The notes beneath the pieces are model-generated. The model saw only the letters and a program-made list of their open reading frames with translations. It did no database searches and had not been told where the DNA came from. The position numbers and the translations under genes were made by a program. Shown here in pieces: positions 10,288 through 30,454 of a stretch of 64,000 nt of DNA. Origin of the DNA: a virus. Lineage: Duplodnaviria; Caudoviricetes. The first letter of the stretch is position 1. Each line of letters starts with the position of its first letter. The DNA is taken from positions 10,816 to 74,815 of IMG/VR virus record IMGVR_UViG_3300025018_000138, one strand, 5' to 3'.

Positions 10288-11121
10288 TCATTTATTAGTT
10301 GGGATTAATTTCATACCATAATTATCAATTTCATCTGATAATTCTAAACCATCGATACGAATCAATTTATTATTTTTAAAAGGTTTATAATTTACTTCAT
10401 GATGCCATCTATCATATCTCCAAACCTTTTTAACGACATCGGGGTGTTGAGACACTAAAGAGTCTACGAATTCACTTCTATGCTCATCAGCTTCATATAT
10501 GGGAGTATTACCACCACTTGTAGTCATTGTTGCATCTTTATCACCTGAGAATGCATTAAAGTTTACCGTACAATATCCATCTTTAAGCATACGTAAACAA
10601 ATATCAGTATCATCATTGAAAATACCTCTCCATTTATAAGGGAGTTCATTGTTTACTAAACTCATAGAATATACTCTACTGTTTAAAATATATGGTGGTC
10701 TACCATCAGGTATAGCATAATTCATATAGTTCAACCCTGCCATAGAAACATTAGTATATCTATCAACAAAATCTTCTACGCATCTAAATATCACATGTGT
10801 TAATACTTTATTCCTTTTATTGTTATTTAATCTATAAAAAGCTTTAACATTATCATCAAATTGCCAATGTCTTTTATGACCTTCTGATATTGAATGTTCT
10901 TTAATCCAATTCCTTGTAGTTACTAATTGGCTTGATTCATTCGGTTTTGAATAAGGCAAAACCAATATTTGATTATCACTTAATACGGTTTTATATAACT
11001 CATATTCTTGTGGTTCAATTACTACTCTAAAATCTGCATTCATTTCTAATAATGCATTTACAGTTTTTCTAGAATTAAATCTACCTTTAGTTGGTATATA
11101 AATTGGATATTTATTCTTCAT
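10288..11121 (-). CDS. TET-associated/GREB1-like glycosyltransferase (DNA base hypermodification type)
   Basis: YPIYIPTKGR, RNWIKEH, HWQFDDN, FNDDTDICLR, GGNT motifs. Confidence 0.8.
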   Translation of the reverse strand: MKNKYPIYIPTKGRFNSRKTVNALLEMNADFRVVIEPQEYELYKTVLSDNQILVLPYSKPNESSQLVTTRNWIKEHSISEGHKRHWQFDDNVKAFYRLNNNKRNKVLTHVIFRCVEDFVDRYTNVSMAGLNYMNYAIPDGRPPYILNSRVYSMSLVNNELPYKWRGIFNDDTDICLRMLKDGYCTVNFNAFSGDKDATMTTSGGNTPIYEADEHRSEFVDSLVSQHPDVVKKVWRYDRWHHEVNYKPFKNNKLIRIDGLELSDEIDNYGMKLIPTNK

Positions 11122-12289: not shown

Positions 12290-12308
12290 TACGAAATTTT
12301 AAAAAATG

Positions 12309-12385
12309 TACCCACGACAAGATTCGAATCTTGTATGTATCCATTACACTTTCGACACGTTCGTAGCGTGAGGTGATACGTGGGC
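12309..12385 (-). ncRNA. rearranged tRNA-like RNA, anticodon ACG (Arg), copy 1
   Basis: acceptor GCCCACG/CGTGGGT, anticodon arm CACG-CTACGAA-CGTG, T arm with TTCGAAT; no D arm; D-loop-like AATGGA placed after the anticodon arm. Confidence 0.7.
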
Positions 12386-12443
12386 ATATGTTTTTATCAC
12401 CATTCCTCGTCCAATCGAGTCTAAAACTATGACATTTGATAAA

Positions 12444-12840: not shown

Positions 12841-12867
12841 CCCTTTTTATTAAAATTTTAAAAAATG

Positions 12868-12944
12868 TACCCACGACAAGATTCGAATCTTGTATGTATC
12901 CATTACACTTTCGACACGTTCGTAGCGTGAGGTGATACATGGGC
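12868..12944 (-). ncRNA. rearranged tRNA-like RNA, anticodon ACG (Arg), copy 2
   Basis: identical to copy 1 except a C-to-T change giving a U-G wobble in the acceptor stem. Confidence 0.7.
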
Positions 12945-12951
12945 ATATTAA

Positions 12952-13526: not shown

Positions 13527-13612
13527 CGGAAAGCACCATAGTTGAAATGGATGGCTTTGACACCACAATCTGTTTAGCAAACAGTTACAAGCACCTACTT
13601 GTTTTACTTTCC
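13527..13612 (-). tRNA. tRNA-Ser(GCT) with 8/4 acceptor/T-stem structure
   Basis: 8-bp GGAAAGTA/TGCTTTCC, 4-bp T stem CCAT/ATGG, loop TTGCTAA, long V arm, G73. Confidence 0.75.
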
Positions 13613-13683
13613 AATTAAAAACAGAAAGTCATTGGAAACTTTCATACCTATGTTTTTATCACCATTCCTCGTCCAATCGAGTC

Positions 13684-13914
13684 TTATTTTAATAATGATA
13701 AATTATATTCATTTAGATATTGTTCAACATATTTTTTATCAAGTTTGATATTAACACTGACAATATGACCCGATGAATTATGTTTGTATCTATTAAATAA
13801 TTCATCTGATTCTATATCGTGAAAAACATCAATAAATTCAAAATCCACATCATGTTGTTTCTTACTTTTATATGCAAGAAATTCTTTATATTCATCGACT
13901 GTTATATATGGCAT
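13684..13914 (-). CDS. hypothetical protein
   Basis: 76-aa ORF between tRNAs. Confidence 0.55.
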   Translation of the reverse strand: MPYITVDEYKEFLAYKSKKQHDVDFEFIDVFHDIESDELFNRYKHNSSGHIVSVNIKLDKKYVEQYLNEYNLSLLK

Positions 13915-21972: not shown

Positions 21973-22614
21973 ATGATACTAATCGAACAACAGATTGATT
22001 CACAATCATTAGCTATGTTACTAAAATGTCGAACTCAATTGATTAATTTAATTAATTCATTCAAACCTTATTGTAATAATTATTTTTATATTTATGGTGG
22101 GTTTATACGAGATTTAATATCTGGGTTTAAACCAGTTGATATTGATATTAATATTGCCGACAGTAATGATAAAAATCGTGTTATTAAGTACCTATCCAAA
22201 ACACATGATATTTCATATGAATCAGCTTGGGTAACTCGTTACAAGTCAAAAATGGGTTTACCAAAAACAATGTATGATATTGCATCCAATTTTAAAACAC
22301 CAACGGAATTTATATCAAATTCCGATTTTTCAAATAATGCTATATTATTTGATTCCAATTATGATTTGTTTTGTTTGGACTCGACTATATATGCAAATAC
22401 GAATAGAAAATTAATTTTAAAACCAATTGAATCTAATAGTCCTATGATTTTAGCATATAGAGCAGGTAAACTAATTCAAAAAGGGTTTGTATATAAATCC
22501 GAAAATCCTATAGACTTGATTAAAGATATAGAATATCAATTTGAACTATATACAAACCCAATCGATATTTATAAAGTTAATTTATCCATTAACGATAGAA
22601 ATGTATCACGTTGA
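21973..22614 (+). CDS. class II nucleotidyltransferase (poly(A) polymerase/CCA head domain only)
   Basis: YGGFIRD...DIDI and DFSNNAI motifs; 213 aa. Confidence 0.7.
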   Translation: MILIEQQIDSQSLAMLLKCRTQLINLINSFKPYCNNYFYIYGGFIRDLISGFKPVDIDINIADSNDKNRVIKYLSKTHDISYESAWVTRYKSKMGLPKTMYDIASNFKTPTEFISNSDFSNNAILFDSNYDLFCLDSTIYANTNRKLILKPIESNSPMILAYRAGKLIQKGFVYKSENPIDLIKDIEYQFELYTNPIDIYKVNLSINDRNVSR

Positions 22615-23624
22615 AAATTTCCAATTTCAGCACCTACTAATGTTTTAGGATAATCAACTCCTAATGCTTTGTACAACAATTGTACAATACTTACGAAAGA
22701 TTCATCCAATTTACATAACATGTTAACATTGTTCATAACAACTCGTCTATTTTTCCAAATAAATAATTTTGACTCGTTTATATCATCTACATAACTATCA
22801 ATCATAATATAGTTACCATAAAATTTAGATACTTGAGCAACTTCTTTTTTGATTGGTAATGAATCAATGAATGAATCATCAAACATACTAAATAAAAACG
22901 CAAATGAAGCATCAACATCATGGTCAATACACTCTTGAACTTCATCAATTCCCAACGATACGTCATCGATGAAACCTACATTATATAATAATACTTTTGG
23001 GATGAAATTAAATGTAGTAATACATTTAGCAAATTCATCCAAGATTCTTTCCATTGATAATACTTTATCCAATTTAACAGTATCAAGAATTTTTTCAATT
23101 GCCAATTTAGTACTTGCATCAAATGTCAAACCATATTTAACATAGAATCTAAAGGCTCTAATCACCCGTAAATAATCTTCTTCAAATCTGTGATACGGAT
23201 TACCAACAGTTTTTAAAATATTATTTTCCAAATCTGATTGTCCATCAAACCAATCTAATATTTTTGTTCCATCAAAACCCATCGCATTTATTGTAAAATC
23301 TCTACGTTGAGCATCTTCATAAAATGAATTGGTGAATTCTACTGTTGCACGTCTACCATCAGTACCCACATCTTTTCTAAATGTAGTATGTTCTACATGA
23401 ACCCCGTGAATTATAAATGTGACCGTTCCATGCTCTATACCAGTATCATATGATGAAAAAGGTAATAAATCTTTAATTTCCAATGGTGTATATGCTGATG
23501 CTACATCGATATCATGTGCTTCACGATTGAGTAACATATCCCTTACACAACCACCAACAGCAATTACTTCGGGTGCATATTGATGAATGGCATGTAAAAT
23601 TAATTCGATATTCGGGGTTGTCAT
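22569..23624 (-). CDS. cca: CCA-adding tRNA nucleotidyltransferase
   Basis: VGGCVRD, DIDV, RRDFTINAM, FEEDYLRVIRAFRF. Confidence 0.92.
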   Translation of the reverse strand: MTTPNIELILHAIHQYAPEVIAVGGCVRDMLLNREAHDIDVASAYTPLEIKDLLPFSSYDTGIEHGTVTFIIHGVHVEHTTFRKDVGTDGRRATVEFTNSFYEDAQRRDFTINAMGFDGTKILDWFDGQSDLENNILKTVGNPYHRFEEDYLRVIRAFRFYVKYGLTFDASTKLAIEKILDTVKLDKVLSMERILDEFAKCITTFNFIPKVLLYNVGFIDDVSLGIDEVQECIDHDVDASFAFLFSMFDDSFIDSLPIKKEVAQVSKFYGNYIMIDSYVDDINESKLFIWKNRRVVMNNVNMLCKLDESFVSIVQLLYKALGVDYPKTLVGAEIGNFQRDTFLSLMDKLTL

Positions 23625-24520: not shown

Positions 24521-24524
24521 AGTG

Positions 24525-24597
24525 TGTTCCTAACAGGACTTGAACCTGTAACCTACTGATTATGAGTCAGTTGCTCTCACCATTGAGCTATAGGAAC
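24525..24597 (-). tRNA. tRNA-CAT (Ile2-like or Met)
   Basis: ACTGA-CTCATAA-TCAGT. Confidence 0.88.
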
Positions 24598-24603
24598 ATA
24601 GTG

Positions 24604-24675
24604 ATGCATGGGGGATTCGAACCCCCGAATTCGAGTTTATGAGACTCGCCACGTAGACCACTGGTGTACCATGCA
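24604..24675 (-). tRNA. tRNA-CAT (Met), atypical: acceptor/T branch 2 nt short
   Basis: CGAGT-CTCATAA-ACTCG; only 5 C available for T-stem plus acceptor. Confidence 0.6.
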
Positions 24676-24684
24676 ATATATTTG

Positions 24685-24767
24685 TGGCGGTGGTGGGAGT
24701 CGAACCCACGCTCTGAAACAGATAAGTTTATGAGACTTATGAGGAAAACCACACCTTCTTCACCGCA
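24685..24767 (-). tRNA. tRNA-CAT with 1:72 mismatch and long variable arm
   Basis: TGCGGTG/CACCGCC, ATAAGT-CTCATAA-ACTTAT, V arm CTGTTTCAG. Confidence 0.7.
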
Positions 24768-25547: not shown

Positions 25548-25610
25548 TATGTTATGTTCATTTATTTCATTTGTTCACGTAAAATGAACACTGTAATTAT
25601 GTGAACGTTG

Positions 25611-25682
25611 TACCGTAAGCAGGATTCGAACCTGCAACCTAATGTTTATGAGACATTATGCTCACCTCTCGCATTCTACGGC
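25611..25682 (-). tRNA. tRNA-Met(CAT)
   Basis: AATGT-CTCATAA-ACATT. Confidence 0.85.
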
Positions 25683-25741: not shown

Positions 25742-27415
25742 TTAAATAACAATCGCTTTAATATCGTTGAGTACTGCTTTTGGGTCAAACTCAACTTTTT
25801 TAATCAGTTCATAGATATCTTGTGTATATCCTTCGAGAGAAAACACACGTGGGTGTTTACTATTAAACATTTCTGTTGGATAACCACAAACATTTATACT
25901 ATAAACATAGGTATTACCATTCAGTTTTTCATATTCTTTAAAAGAATTTATTACCGAATCTTTACCTTGCATATCACTAATGATAAATACTCTATCATAT
26001 CGTCCTTTTAATGATGGAAAGATAGTATCAAACGCAGTACCATAACCAACAGACCCTTGTTTTGATGCAATTACTTTTTTAATAGTATTTACAGAATCCA
26101 AAGGATTTATATTAATAGGTTGAGTATAGTTTGCAAAATGATATACATCTGCATTTGTAGCTTTCGCTAAAGTTGATGCAACCAATGATGCTTTTTCGAT
26201 TGCTGATTTACTACCTTGTTTTTTATTTGCTAAAGTAATCAAACTTGTCATAGAACCTGAGCTATCTAATACTACAGCAGTTTTACCTGTGAAGTAATCT
26301 TCTAAATTTGGTATTGATAATTCATATGCTTTATTTAATGCAGTTAATATTGAACCTAAATCACTTGGGCTATGTTCTTGTAACAGAAACTCCAATGCCA
26401 AATCTATTTGGTGTGGAAACACTAATGATTTTTTGATAAATTCTGGTTCAATTAGTAAAGCAGATACTTTTTCTTTTAATGTACTATGTCCAAGTTTAAT
26501 GATATTGTTTAAGTTTCTTAACAATGCCAAGTACCCAATTTTTTTAGTATCAATTAGCTCTACAAAATTTTCACCCTTTAAATCATCCAATTCAACTTTA
26601 GCTTGCTCAACACTTAATTCACCTGATGCCACTTTTGCAGAAACATCTTGACCCGATTTGGTGTTTTTATCTTCAACAGTATTGAACTGTTTTAATAAAC
26701 CTAACGTTAATGCAAACAATGTTGGGATAGTTACTTCTCCATCATCACTAATATTTCTTGTTAGTTTATGTGCTTGTTCTTCATATAATACATGCCCTTT
26801 GACTGCTTTAAGTAATTTAGCTTTAGGTACAGATACTACTCCTTGAATTTCGGTTTCCCGTGGGTGTACTAACTTGACAATATTCAATAAAGAAATACTA
26901 GAAGTTTTCAATTGGTATTTAGCCAATTGGTATTTATCAGCATTTTCAATCACAGATTTGAATCCACGTTTGATAGCATTTGATAATTTCTTACCGTTAT
27001 TTAATGCCATATATGCACCTGCGATTTCCATCATATCATCTAAACGATATACAACTCCACCGCGATTTTCACCACGAACACGTTTAGTGAAGAAATGAGT
27101 TCCTAATTCGGTACCACTAAGATATCTAGCTAATACTGCTGATGCAAAATGTGTTGTTGCACGTTGTCCTACGACTGAACGTACATAAACAATTGCTTTG
27201 GCTACCAATTCTTTATCACCAATTTTATCAATTAATGATAATATTCGTGCTTCTCTTGTTTCACTTGTTTCATAAAATGTATTATCTACACCTGTAGCAA
27301 GAATTCCTACTAATTCTACGATTGGGTCTTTTGCAAAACCGTTTCCGTTTTCATATGTAGTTACATTTGGTTCTGCTTTAGTAGCAGATACTTGGTGTGA
27401 GTTATATTTTCCCAT
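25742..27415 (-). CDS. rsr: Ro60/TROVE-domain RNA-binding protein with vWA domain
   Basis: N-terminal ENGNGF, YLALLRNLNNI, FPHQ, MIDAS VLDSSGSMT, C-terminal vWA. Confidence 0.92.
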   Translation of the reverse strand: MGKYNSHQVSATKAEPNVTTYENGNGFAKDPIVELVGILATGVDNTFYETSETREARILSLIDKIGDKELVAKAIVYVRSVVGQRATTHFASAVLARYLSGTELGTHFFTKRVRGENRGGVVYRLDDMMEIAGAYMALNNGKKLSNAIKRGFKSVIENADKYQLAKYQLKTSSISLLNIVKLVHPRETEIQGVVSVPKAKLLKAVKGHVLYEEQAHKLTRNISDDGEVTIPTLFALTLGLLKQFNTVEDKNTKSGQDVSAKVASGELSVEQAKVELDDLKGENFVELIDTKKIGYLALLRNLNNIIKLGHSTLKEKVSALLIEPEFIKKSLVFPHQIDLALEFLLQEHSPSDLGSILTALNKAYELSIPNLEDYFTGKTAVVLDSSGSMTSLITLANKKQGSKSAIEKASLVASTLAKATNADVYHFANYTQPININPLDSVNTIKKVIASKQGSVGYGTAFDTIFPSLKGRYDRVFIISDMQGKDSVINSFKEYEKLNGNTYVYSINVCGYPTEMFNSKHPRVFSLEGYTQDIYELIKKVEFDPKAVLNDIKAIVI

Positions 27416-28886: not shown

Positions 28887-29010
28887 AAGAAATATCAAAA
28901 CAGAATTTTTAGCGCTCTACCATTGAGCTACATGTCCCCATAAGGGACATGGTTGGACTCGAACCAACAACCACTCGTTTCAATACGATGAAACTGTTTT
29001 TGTCACTATT
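28887..29010 (-). ncRNA. YrlA-type Y RNA (element 2; circularly permuted tRNA mimic)
   Basis: order T arm, then closed acceptor hairpin CATGTCCC/GGGACATG, then D arm GCTC-AATGGTA-GAGC, inside the outer AAACAG/CTGTTT stem. Confidence 0.85.
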
Positions 29011-29101: not shown

Positions 29102-29174
29102 CGATGTTGATGGGATTCAAACCCACATAATCTTCGCTGACAACGAAGTGCATTAGTCATTATGCTACAACATC
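29102..29174 (-). tRNA. tRNA-Asp(GTC)
   Basis: CTTCG-TTGTCAG-CGAAG. Confidence 0.85.
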
Positions 29175-29810
29175 ATTATGTTCATGTTTTTCGTAGAATT
29201 TTATCCATTTTCTTATAGAATTATCTGAAACTCCATATTTTCTACCTGTAGCACTAAATCCTAATGATTTTGTGTCTTGTATTAATATTTCATATGGTGG
29301 TCTGTTTCTTTTTCTATCTTTTTTTAATATTTCAATATTTATTTTTTTTTCTTTGAATGGGTTATTATTTTCATAATCATTTAAATAATTTATTTTAAAT
29401 TTTTCTTCATTTACTCTAATTGCTGTTTTATTTTCAATATCAGATGTAGATAAGAAAAAAATACCACCGCTTTTTACTACAATAATAATATAATCTATTT
29501 TATTTTTATCAAAATATTTTCGTGTATTATTATATTTATTACCACCGCTAGTTGCAAGTGTTACTATCCAATTATTATTTTTATAAACACTTGTTGATTT
29601 GACTTGAACTTTTAGTAAGCAATTATCTTTTTCAATAATAAAATCATACGATTGATTTTCGTTTAATGGTTTAGATACTGTGTATCCTTCTTTTATTAAG
29701 AAAGCTAAAGCGTATGCTTCACCAACATTACCTTTATCTTTTTGGGTTTTACAATTTTCAAATATATTCATGATATTAATTATAATATATTTTATATTTT
29801 TGAACCCCAA
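29160..29810 (-). CDS. free-standing PD-(D/E)XK homing endonuclease (I-Ssp6803I/PDDEXK_5-like) with C-terminal HTH
   Basis: KGNVGE, YDFIIEKD, KVQVKS; C-terminal GRKYGVSDNSIRKW. Confidence 0.85.
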   Translation of the reverse strand: MGFKNIKYIIINIMNIFENCKTQKDKGNVGEAYALAFLIKEGYTVSKPLNENQSYDFIIEKDNCLLKVQVKSTSVYKNNNWIVTLATSGGNKYNNTRKYFDKNKIDYIIIVVKSGGIFFLSTSDIENKTAIRVNEEKFKINYLNDYENNNPFKEKKINIEILKKDRKRNRPPYEILIQDTKSLGFSATGRKYGVSDNSIRKWIKFYEKHEHNDVVA

Positions 29811-29832: not shown

Positions 29833-29919
29833 TGCGGTTCGAAAGATTCGAACTTTACGCCACCAACCCCACTTAGTTTTTGACAACAGTTTTACAGACT
29901 GCCGTGGGGAACGAACCGC
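29833..29919 (-). ncRNA. rearranged tRNA-like RNA, anticodon GTA (Tyr)
   Basis: acceptor GCGGTTC/GAACCGC, CCCCAC/GTGGGG stem enclosing GCAGT-CTGTAAA-ACTGT, TTGG loop, T arm TTCGAAT. Confidence 0.75.
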
Positions 29920-29929
29920 AAATAAAAAC

Positions 29930-30072
29930 AAAGAAATTTATAATCAGTTGACCAACATTTCAACCCCCGTACTAATACTAATTATATTAACATTAGTACG
30001 GGGGGCAGGAATTGAACCTACGTTATAGCAAAGCATGATTTTGTACGAAGTATCTGATTTATTACGCTATTG
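29930..30072 (-). ncRNA. YrlA-type Y RNA (element 3; extended 13-bp acceptor hairpin)
   Basis: AATCAG-ATACTTCG; T arm GTAGG-TTCAATT-CCTGC; CCCCCGTACTAAT hairpin; D-like TTGA/TCAA. Confidence 0.75.
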
Positions 30073-30334: not shown

Positions 30335-30454
30335 AGGAGAAATATAAAAAGTGTGTTCCTCTTACGAGGTCGAGTGGAATTGAACCACTGAAGTTTATTT
30401 TCAAGATAAATGCCCAACCATTGAGCTACGATGTAACACTTTTAAACGCTACCT
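30335..30454 (-). ncRNA. Y-RNA-like element 5 containing a non-permuted tRNA body (anticodon TGA)
   Basis: AAAGTGT-TACATCG, then D arm, anticodon arm, T arm, GNRA hairpin, ACACTTT..TTTCTCC. Confidence 0.75.

Follow-up and report, generated by a model that had tools for sequence, protein, structure and literature searches.

Introduction

Circularly permuted and split tRNA genes, such as those of Cyanidioschyzon and Nanoarchaeum, carry the segments of a tRNA in a non-cloverleaf order, and processing restores the normal cloverleaf. To our knowledge, tRNAs that depart from the cloverleaf as far as the one described here have so far been found mainly in mitochondria. The D-armless mammalian mitochondrial tRNA-Ser(AGY) has no D hairpin and is still aminoacylated and active in decoding, with an extended anticodon-side helix that compensates for the loss (PMC9976931). 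Mitochondrial D-armless tRNAs are short and have no D/T elbow. The (8/4) allo-tRNAs and (8/4) tRNA-Ser and tRNA-His of bacteria and phages, which occur in phage tRNA clusters, have a 12-bp branch made of 8 acceptor and 4 T-stem pairs, a long variable region and a D hairpin with a long stem and a tetraloop (Mukai et al., 2017; PMC5389517). The YrlA/Y-RNA modules bound by Ro60 present tRNA parts in a non-standard order, and YrlA itself has a closed acceptor hairpin, a Ro-binding stem and no anticodon arm (Chen et al., 2014; PMC4201824). For tRNA-Tyr in particular, G1:C72 and A73 are the bacterial identity elements (PMC9976931). This tRNA is also a known target of phage defence, as for PtuAB of retron-Eco7, and phage tRNA-Tyr can counter that defence (PMC11555353; see also PMC10264068).

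Here we compare these systems with a tRNA-Tyr(GUA)-like gene of a tailed phage. The window analysed is a 64,000-nt stretch (positions 10,816 to 74,815) of the virus record IMGVR_UViG_3300025018_000138, a linear IMG/VR contig of 74.8 kb with 27.9% G+C and a CheckV completeness of about 36%. Judged by comparative sequence analysis, the element is very probably a selected, structured tRNA-Tyr-like gene belonging to a recurrent non-cloverleaf class. The reading we favour, at a probability of about 0.55, is that it encodes a working non-cloverleaf tRNA-Tyr(GUA) that is charged and decodes.

A tRNA-Tyr-like gene that lacks a D hairpin

The gene is 87 nt long and runs from 29919 to 29833 on the minus strand, the strand common to all 25 tRNAs called by ARAGORN. 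Read 5' to 3', it begins with the acceptor strand GCGGTTCG, followed by TT CCCCAC G GCAGT CTGTAAA ACTGT T GTCA (the last four letters being the 5' strand of the V stem) and AAAACTAA, and continues with GTGGGG TTGG TGGC (the last four being the 3' strand of the V stem) GT AAAG TTCGAAT CTTT CGAACCGC A. Its parts, all on the minus strand, are as follows.

29833 to 29919, minus: the whole rewired tRNA-Tyr(GUA) gene, defined by sequence, homologues and pair counts; CCA not encoded
29912 to 29919, minus: 5' strand of the acceptor stem, GCGGTTCG, element positions 1-8, with G1; partner at 29834-29841
29904 to 29909, minus: 5' strand of helix X, CCCCAC, positions 11-16; 100% paired with GTGGGG in 4 homologues
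29886 to 29902, minus: anticodon arm GCAGT-CTGTAAA-ACTGT, with the anticodon GTA at 29893-29895; the stem covaries
29881 to 29884, minus: 5' strand of the V stem, GTCA, positions 36-39; partner TGGC at 29859-29862
29873 to 29880, minus: A-rich loop segment AAAACTAA, conserved in homologues and like the start of the variable arm in a Bacteroidota tRNA-Tyr
29867 to 29872, minus: 3' strand of helix X, GTGGGG, positions 48-53, within the V loop
29863 to 29866, minus: TTGG, D-loop-like; Y16 Y17 G18 G19 by analogy
29859 to 29862, minus: 3' strand of the V stem, TGGC, positions 58-61; 87.5% of alignment cells paired
29842 to 29856, minus: T arm, with loop TTCGAAT on a 4-bp stem, AAAG/CTTT; of the 4 pairs, 3 changed on both sides
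29834 to 29841, minus: 3' strand of the acceptor stem, CGAACCGC, with C72; pair counts from the four-sequence alignment
29833, minus: discriminator A73, read from the sequence

A sequence-only reading of this DNA had named an acceptor, a CCCCAC/GTGGGG stem around a Tyr anticodon arm, a TTGG segment and a T arm, and every one of these parts lies exactly at 29833-29919. The 7-nt anticodon loop has U33 and a purine at position 37, and the T arm carries a TTCRANY loop, as expected of a tRNA. A D hairpin cannot form because only 9-10 nt separate the acceptor from the anticodon stem. CCCCAC, which comes after U9-U10, stands in for a D-stem strand and is directly continuous with the anticodon stem. 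The acceptor/T branch fits 8 bp plus 4 bp better than 7 plus 5, and by analogy with the D loop TTGG may contribute to an elbow. Two other foldings were rejected: threading as an ordinary class II cloverleaf leaves no D-stem partner 5' of the anticodon arm, and a local D-like hairpin 3' of that arm (AAC...GTT) has 3 bp only, is unconserved and clashes with helix X.

Set against canonical class II tRNA-Tyr(GUA), for example that of a Puia sp. MAG (L256), and against the Rfam RF00005 cloverleaf, the element shares the CUGUAAA loop, G1:C72, A73, TTCGAAT, a length in the 85-90 nt range and an extended region 3' of the anticodon arm. It differs in having no D hairpin, in a D-stem-like helix that uses a strand inside the variable region, in its 8/4 split and in being missed by both Rfam and ARAGORN. 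A Bacteroidota tRNA-Tyr has almost the same anticodon arm and first variable-arm bases (GGTCTGTAAAACCGTTGT.CAAAAA), a likeness that suggests descent from a class II tRNA-Tyr.

Like the allo-tRNAs, the element has a 12-bp 8 + 4 branch, a place in a phage tRNA cluster and a long variable region (PMC5389517); unlike them, it has no D hairpin, and it carries a Tyr anticodon and A73 where they have Ser or His identity. The missing D hairpin is shared with mitochondrial tRNA-Ser(AGY), from which the element differs in its greater length, in retaining a consensus T loop and a GG motif, and in its D-stem-like helix of long-range pairs. With YrlA it shares the non-standard order of tRNA parts, and its island also includes YrlA-like RNAs and a TROVE/Ro60 gene; in contrast to YrlA, its acceptor ends are free and its anticodon arm is intact, two of its homologues in Pseudomonas phages encode CCA, and the Rfam YrlA match in the window is a separate element (28894-29000). 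Its order of segments is non-cloverleaf, as in permuted and split tRNA genes, but the acceptor ends already form its 5' and 3' termini, and we see no evident way in which processing could yield a cloverleaf.

Homologues in unrelated phages

Four homologues were found, in L236 (with the same sequence on L240), in L146 and in the Pseudomonas phages Rembedalsseter and SCYZ1. L236 and L240 are jumbo-phage IMG/VR contigs of 230 and 461 kb, recovered with a conserved-core pattern. Blastn against cultured phages recovered the copies in Rembedalsseter (PQ464593.1, 44629-44716) and SCYZ1 (MH518298.3), both unannotated; each lies just upstream of the small terminase gene and has A73 followed by an encoded CCA. 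Rembedalsseter has no annotated tRNA, and ARAGORN calls none in its 45 kb, so that the rewired Tyr gene is the only tRNA-like gene found there. A fifth, more distant copy of 95 nt comes from the metagenome contig L146; a family covariance model built on the window and L236 copies gives it 28.8 bits (E = 1e-4). G1:C72, A73 and the GUA anticodon are kept in all five copies, and the D-loop-like segment reads TTGG in L236 and SCYZ1, ATTGG in L146 and TGTG in Rembedalsseter.

The genes directly 3' of the element encode a PD-(D/E)XK protein in the window, a SNase-family protein in L236/L240 (L236:504-827, plus strand, directly after the rewired gene) and the terminase small subunit in the Pseudomonas phages (L277/L280). 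The L146 copy sits within a tight tRNA array with no adjoining ORF. A rewired Tyr gene with a nuclease gene may travel as a cassette, although two cases in nuclease-rich arrays are little to go on.

Other searches gave little. A single-sequence model of the element produced only weak matches in the relatives; an IMG/VR pattern fixing GGGGTTGG plus GTTCGA gave one match, by chance, and one with an Ile-type TTGAAAAY connector gave 46, all by chance. A scan of genome contigs returned chance matches and one ordinary Bacteroidota tRNA-Tyr, and the L146 copy had no blastn match in the phage collection. The contigs of the closest metagenome relatives, found through Ro60 (L107-L110), do not extend to a copy of the element. 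A blastn match in Lactobacillus phage Satyr (MG744354.1; L278:574-660) was set aside as a D-arm-bearing gene outside the rewired class; this tRNA-Tyr(GUA)-like gene, absent from the annotation, has the T loop CGCGAAT and follows shortly after the annotated tRNAs.

A gap in the decoding set

The sequence-only reading held that canonical tRNAs here serve 19 amino acids without Tyr, and ARAGORN agrees: its 25 tRNAs lie in three clusters, all on the minus strand, and none is for Tyr. The element itself is not called in any of the four ARAGORN modes used (standard, mitochondrial and relaxed; -t, -mt, -mtx, -ps), and Rfam RF00005 gives no match to it at E<=1 in a scan of 12000-33000. On the assumption that U34 tRNAs read whole four-codon boxes, the 25 tRNAs cover 21 of 24 codon boxes and leave out UAY, CGN and AGY. 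The anticodons of the three uncalled tRNA-like genes, GTA, ACG and GCT, match these three boxes exactly, for which a rough count (3!/24^3) gives a chance of about 4e-4. The genes besides the Tyr element are the following.

12309 to 12385, minus: rewired tRNA-Arg(ACG), copy 1, of the same class; rewired ACG is the only CGN reader in the contig
12868 to 12944, minus: rewired tRNA-Arg(ACG), copy 2; one acceptor change from copy 1, C:G to U:G
13527 to 13612, minus: uncalled tRNA-Ser(GCU)-like gene, 86 nt; the only AGY reader in the contig

Of the 16,079 codons in the long ORFs of the contig, 5.4% are for Tyr. The whole 74.8-kb contig holds no second GTA anticodon arm with a T loop. The element is therefore the only Tyr decoder candidate of the contig, as had been claimed; the claim weakens beyond it, because the contig is about 36% of the genome, so that a normal tRNA-Tyr may lie elsewhere, and because L236/L240 and L146 carry canonical tRNA-Tyr as well.

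Several further features of the tRNA complement are recorded here. In the tRNA-Ser(GCU) gene the acceptor has 8 bp and the T stem 4 bp; a 6-bp D stem ends in a tetraloop, and the variable arm is long. L001, L002, L010 and L015 carry conserved copies of this gene, and its layout agrees with the (8/4) tRNA-Ser described by Mukai et al. (2017; PMC5389517). The two ACG copies sit in 96-nt direct repeats (12294-12389 and 12853-12948) that are 99% identical, and a 36-nt perfect repeat (12387-12422 and 13649-13684) flanks the ACG region. Four genes for CAT-anticodon tRNAs, one of 81 nt, lie at 24524-24764 and 25610-25682 on the minus strand and presumably include initiator, elongator and Ile2 (lysidine) species. 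Many Ro60-encoding relatives (L018, L020, L022, L024, L028, L034, L039, L041, L042 and others) have CTA-anticodon tRNAs, labelled 'Pyl' by ARAGORN, that may be amber suppressors and point to possible recoding of TAG in the phages concerned. No CTA-anticodon tRNA occurs in the window, where the stops TAA/TGA/TAG number 40/12/3.

Genomic neighbourhood, and decoder or decoy

The element lies within a 21-kb island of translation- and RNA-related genes, which also has HNH endonuclease ORF(s) and the following features.

22569 to 23624, minus: CCA-adding enzyme gene (PHROG 2244, E = 7.5e-49), 6 kb from the element
25742 to 27415, minus: TROVE/Ro60 gene (Pfam PF05731)
28894 to 29000, minus: YrlA-like RNA (Rfam, 43 bits, below the gathering score)
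29160 to 29810, minus: PD-(D/E)XK endonuclease ORF (Pfam PF11645), beginning 23 nt downstream of the element
29940 to 30050, minus: second permuted T/acceptor/D module with a 13-bp closed acceptor, a tRNA-mimicking RNA upstream of Ro60
30370 to 30431, minus: acceptor-less tRNA body with a CTTGAAA loop (Rfam tRNA, positions 5-66)

The sole full-length match of the PD-(D/E)XK ORF among 5.8 billion proteins is itself, and an identical endonuclease is present on a 2.7-kb contig. The phage CCA-adding enzyme could supply the CCA that the element gene lacks. A sister phage, L107, is close to the window (Ro60 92% identical, tRNA-Asp 96%) and carries at L107:4-75, just upstream of tRNA-Asp, a tRNA-Tyr of the ordinary cloverleaf form, 72 nt long and with a short variable loop; between its Asn and Glu genes there is neither the PD-(D/E)XK ORF nor the YrlA-like RNA. 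Because this cloverleaf gene stands where the window has its element and endonuclease, the rewired gene occupies the Tyr slot, and by sequence comparison the pair in the window looks like a cassette replacement relative to L107.

Both the filled gap and the replaced cloverleaf gene point to decoding. They weigh against an alternative that we consider about half as probable, namely that the tRNA-like RNA is functional but not employed by the ribosome, acting as a decoy or sponge for a host nuclease or other defence protein that targets tRNA-Tyr, or as a regulator that binds TyrRS or the Ro60/Y-RNA system. A canonical tRNA-Tyr lies about 30 nt upstream of the rewired gene in L236/L240 and 2.4 kb from it in L146; in those genomes the rewired gene is thus an addition and need not be a decoder. 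The 47-nt core, unpaired segments included, is almost invariant (2-4 differences between window and L236), but about half of the positions in the outer stems have changed with pairing kept, a pattern expected of a protein-binding surface. The window's TROVE/Ro60 gene and several tRNA-mimicking Y-like RNAs would suit a regulator, and the attack on tRNA-Tyr by phage defence would suit a decoy (retron-Eco7 PtuAB, PMC11555353). A decoy, however, has no need of an encoded CCA, A73 and G1:C72 along with an 8 + 4 = 12-bp branch of the length recognised by EF-Tu (PMC5389517).

Fold and covariation

Pairs were counted in the four-sequence alignment under a named pseudoknotted structure, with L146 considered separately as a fifth member. 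Standard pairs fill 96.3% of the cells, as against 80% in shuffles, and pairing falls to 43-53% when partners are shifted by one column. Changes on both sides occur in 13 of the 27 pairs, distributed as follows.

Acceptor stem: 8 pairs, 7 changed on both sides; pair 8:82 is G:C, U:A, U:G, U:G
T stem: 4 pairs, 3 changed on both sides
Anticodon stem: 5 pairs, 2 changed on both sides (A:U to and from G:C; G:U to and from U:A/C:G)
Helix X (11-16 with 48-53): 6 pairs, 1 changed on both sides; 100% paired
V stem (GTCA:TGRC): 4 pairs, 0 changed on both sides; 87.5% of cells paired

The covarying pair 8:82 together with a T stem of 4 pairs only, the would-be 49:65 pair being mismatched, makes the acceptor/T branch 8/4. 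So short a T stem is a point against a working tRNA. RNAalifold on the window and L236 copies returns the same branch and a continuous 12-bp helix X/anticodon stem with a 12-nt bulge, and the RNAfold minimum free energy structure of the single sequence (-25.9 kcal/mol, z = -2.0) reproduces the acceptor stem and CCCCAC/GTGGGG. The V stem, which closes the region 3' of the anticodon arm, is GTCA:TGGC in the window, GTCA:TGAC in L236 and GTC:GAC in the Pseudomonas phages. Since the loop of this variable-arm-like hairpin contains the 3' strand of helix X, whose partner lies on the other side of the anticodon arm, the proposed core is a pseudoknot and not a four-way junction. Helix X and the anticodon stem would together stack as about 12 pairs, with the 12-bp 8/4 branch as the other limb; since a limb of that size is roughly as long as the normal D-plus-anticodon limb, an L shape built from two helices of about 12 bp is plausible on geometric grounds. 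A near-constant core framed by outer stems that drift and stay paired is the signature of a selected RNA and not of decay.

The pairing of helix X deserves separate consideration, because the RNA might be a working tRNA-Tyr in which this helix is not real, a D-armless molecule, comparable to the D-armless tRNAs of mitochondria, with a very large variable arm and with C-rich and G-rich segments that match by composition. Connector shuffles that keep the base composition form helices almost as stable, the difference not being significant, because anything C-rich pairs with the G-rich strand. A duplex-energy test in which cognate connector/strand pairs proved more stable than swapped ones (p about 0.002) is for that reason given no weight. 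Helix X is, moreover, almost invariant in the closest homologues, its covariation there being confined to one pair; it is poorly resolved in the Ile(GAU) family treated below, and relatives have D-stem-less tRNA-Tyr genes that lack any such helix (the 'CAGGG' family, L071). We nevertheless judge this account improbable: helix X is fully paired in the four homologues with a C:G, C:G, U:G, U:A series at pair 13:51, L146 has unrelated but complementary strands at the equivalent places (ACGGC:GTCGT for helix X, CCATT:AATGG for the V stem, then ATTGG), and the Arg members of the class differ from one another in complementary triplets (CAC:GTG in the window, CCC:GGG, CCGT:ACGG, CGA:TCG).

Two further accounts deny that the RNA is a tRNA at all, or that it is still one. 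That a protein gene follows directly in 3 of 3 cases examined (PD-(D/E)XK, SNase, terminase small subunit) would suit a cis-acting RNA (a processing site, a terminator or a leader for the downstream gene) that resembles a tRNA by chance; this is very unlikely, as those downstream genes are mutually unrelated, the L146 element sits in its tight tRNA array with no ORF beside it, and anticodon loop, T loop and identity nucleotides are conserved in the manner of a tRNA. Least credible and disfavoured is a decaying tRNA-Tyr pseudogene scrambled by insertion of the neighbouring endonuclease gene: tRNA finders do reject the element, a mobile-looking PD-(D/E)XK ORF does adjoin it and the sister phage has an intact cloverleaf gene instead, but unrelated phages, including 45-47-kb Pseudomonas phages, keep all helices through compensatory change, both Pseudomonas-phage copies retain the encoded CCA, and the core stays nearly identical to that of L236 (2-4 differences in 47) despite stems that differ at half of their positions.

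A wider class of rewired tRNA genes

When about 280 loci were scanned with a descriptor, genes for tRNA-Ile(GAU), tRNA-Ile(UAU) and tRNA-Arg(UCG, UCU, ACG) showed this arrangement too (acceptor, a 7-10-nt connector, anticodon arm, a 20-38-nt segment, T arm). The Tyr element fits this descriptor with d1 = 10 and d2 = 28, under the 7/5 split that the descriptor uses. Dozens of phage contigs have rewired Ile and Arg genes, and for 38 of 39 rewired genes ARAGORN calls no tRNA of the same anticodon in the locus concerned. Among 12 distinct Ile(GAU) genes pairing is 100% in the acceptor stem, 93% in the anticodon stem and 98% in the T stem, and 6 of 7, 5 of 5 and 4 of 5 pairs, respectively, changed on both sides (15 of 17 in all). 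Their spanning helix is only 61-75% paired and has two competing registers, so that the core pairing is not settled for every family.

The sequence-only reading suggested a functional tRNA class of altered topology here, and a conserved class of such tRNA-like genes does exist: homologues keep every helix by compensation, and the Ile and Arg genes recur. Its further statement that the Tyr element has the same architecture as the ACG element survives for the order of parts, but the spanning helix of the ACG element is only 3-4 bp long, its T loop has 8 nt, and a local D-like hairpin could form there as an alternative. We found no published description of this layout in the literature.

Two other groups of unusual tRNA genes were seen in the same loci. 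A family of short tRNA-Tyr(GUA) genes (66-71 nt) has a 14-17-nt 'CAGGG' loop instead of a D arm and a 5-nt variable loop; its members (in L014, L027, L040, L042, L050, L051, L052, L058 and L066, and at L071:4658-4728) are missed by ARAGORN, and some lie beside a canonical tRNA-Tyr. At L091:7734-7811 (plus strand) and L103:7150-7228 (minus strand) are class II tRNA-Ser(GCU) genes that have no D hairpin and a covarying long variable arm.

Proposed function

If the element is the decoder that we favour, its RNA would be transcribed together with the tRNA array, trimmed and given CCA by the phage CCA-adding enzyme. The host TyrRS would then charge it through G1:C72, A73, the GUA anticodon and the enlarged variable region, and the charged RNA would read UAY codons. 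A broader proposal, which we put forward tentatively and at somewhat less than even odds, is that a tRNA with a pseudoknot core is charged with Tyr, used by bacterial ribosomes and spread by phages, sometimes beside nuclease genes and in Rembedalsseter as the only tRNA-like gene, its body perhaps escaping defences or competitor nucleases that recognise the ordinary tRNA-Tyr or its gene. Evasion of nucleases as the purpose of the element, which the sequence-only reading had suggested for host anticodon nucleases, we regard as unlikely; what speaks for it is circumstantial, in that defence is known to target tRNA-Tyr, and in that two small cultured phages carry the gene and Rembedalsseter does so with no other tRNA-like gene found.

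Implications

The question can be addressed directly, since two cultured and fully sequenced Pseudomonas phages, SCYZ1 and Rembedalsseter, hold unannotated copies that encode CCA. Standard tRNA finders under-count phage tRNAs: because they miss rewired and (8/4) genes, a decoding set that is complete appears to be without Tyr, CGN-Arg and AGY-Ser. The rewired design offers a possible natural scaffold on which to build orthogonal tRNAs. Should the element prove to be charged and to decode, the cloverleaf would not be obligatory for work with a bacterial TyrRS, EF-Tu, RNase P, CCA enzyme and ribosome.
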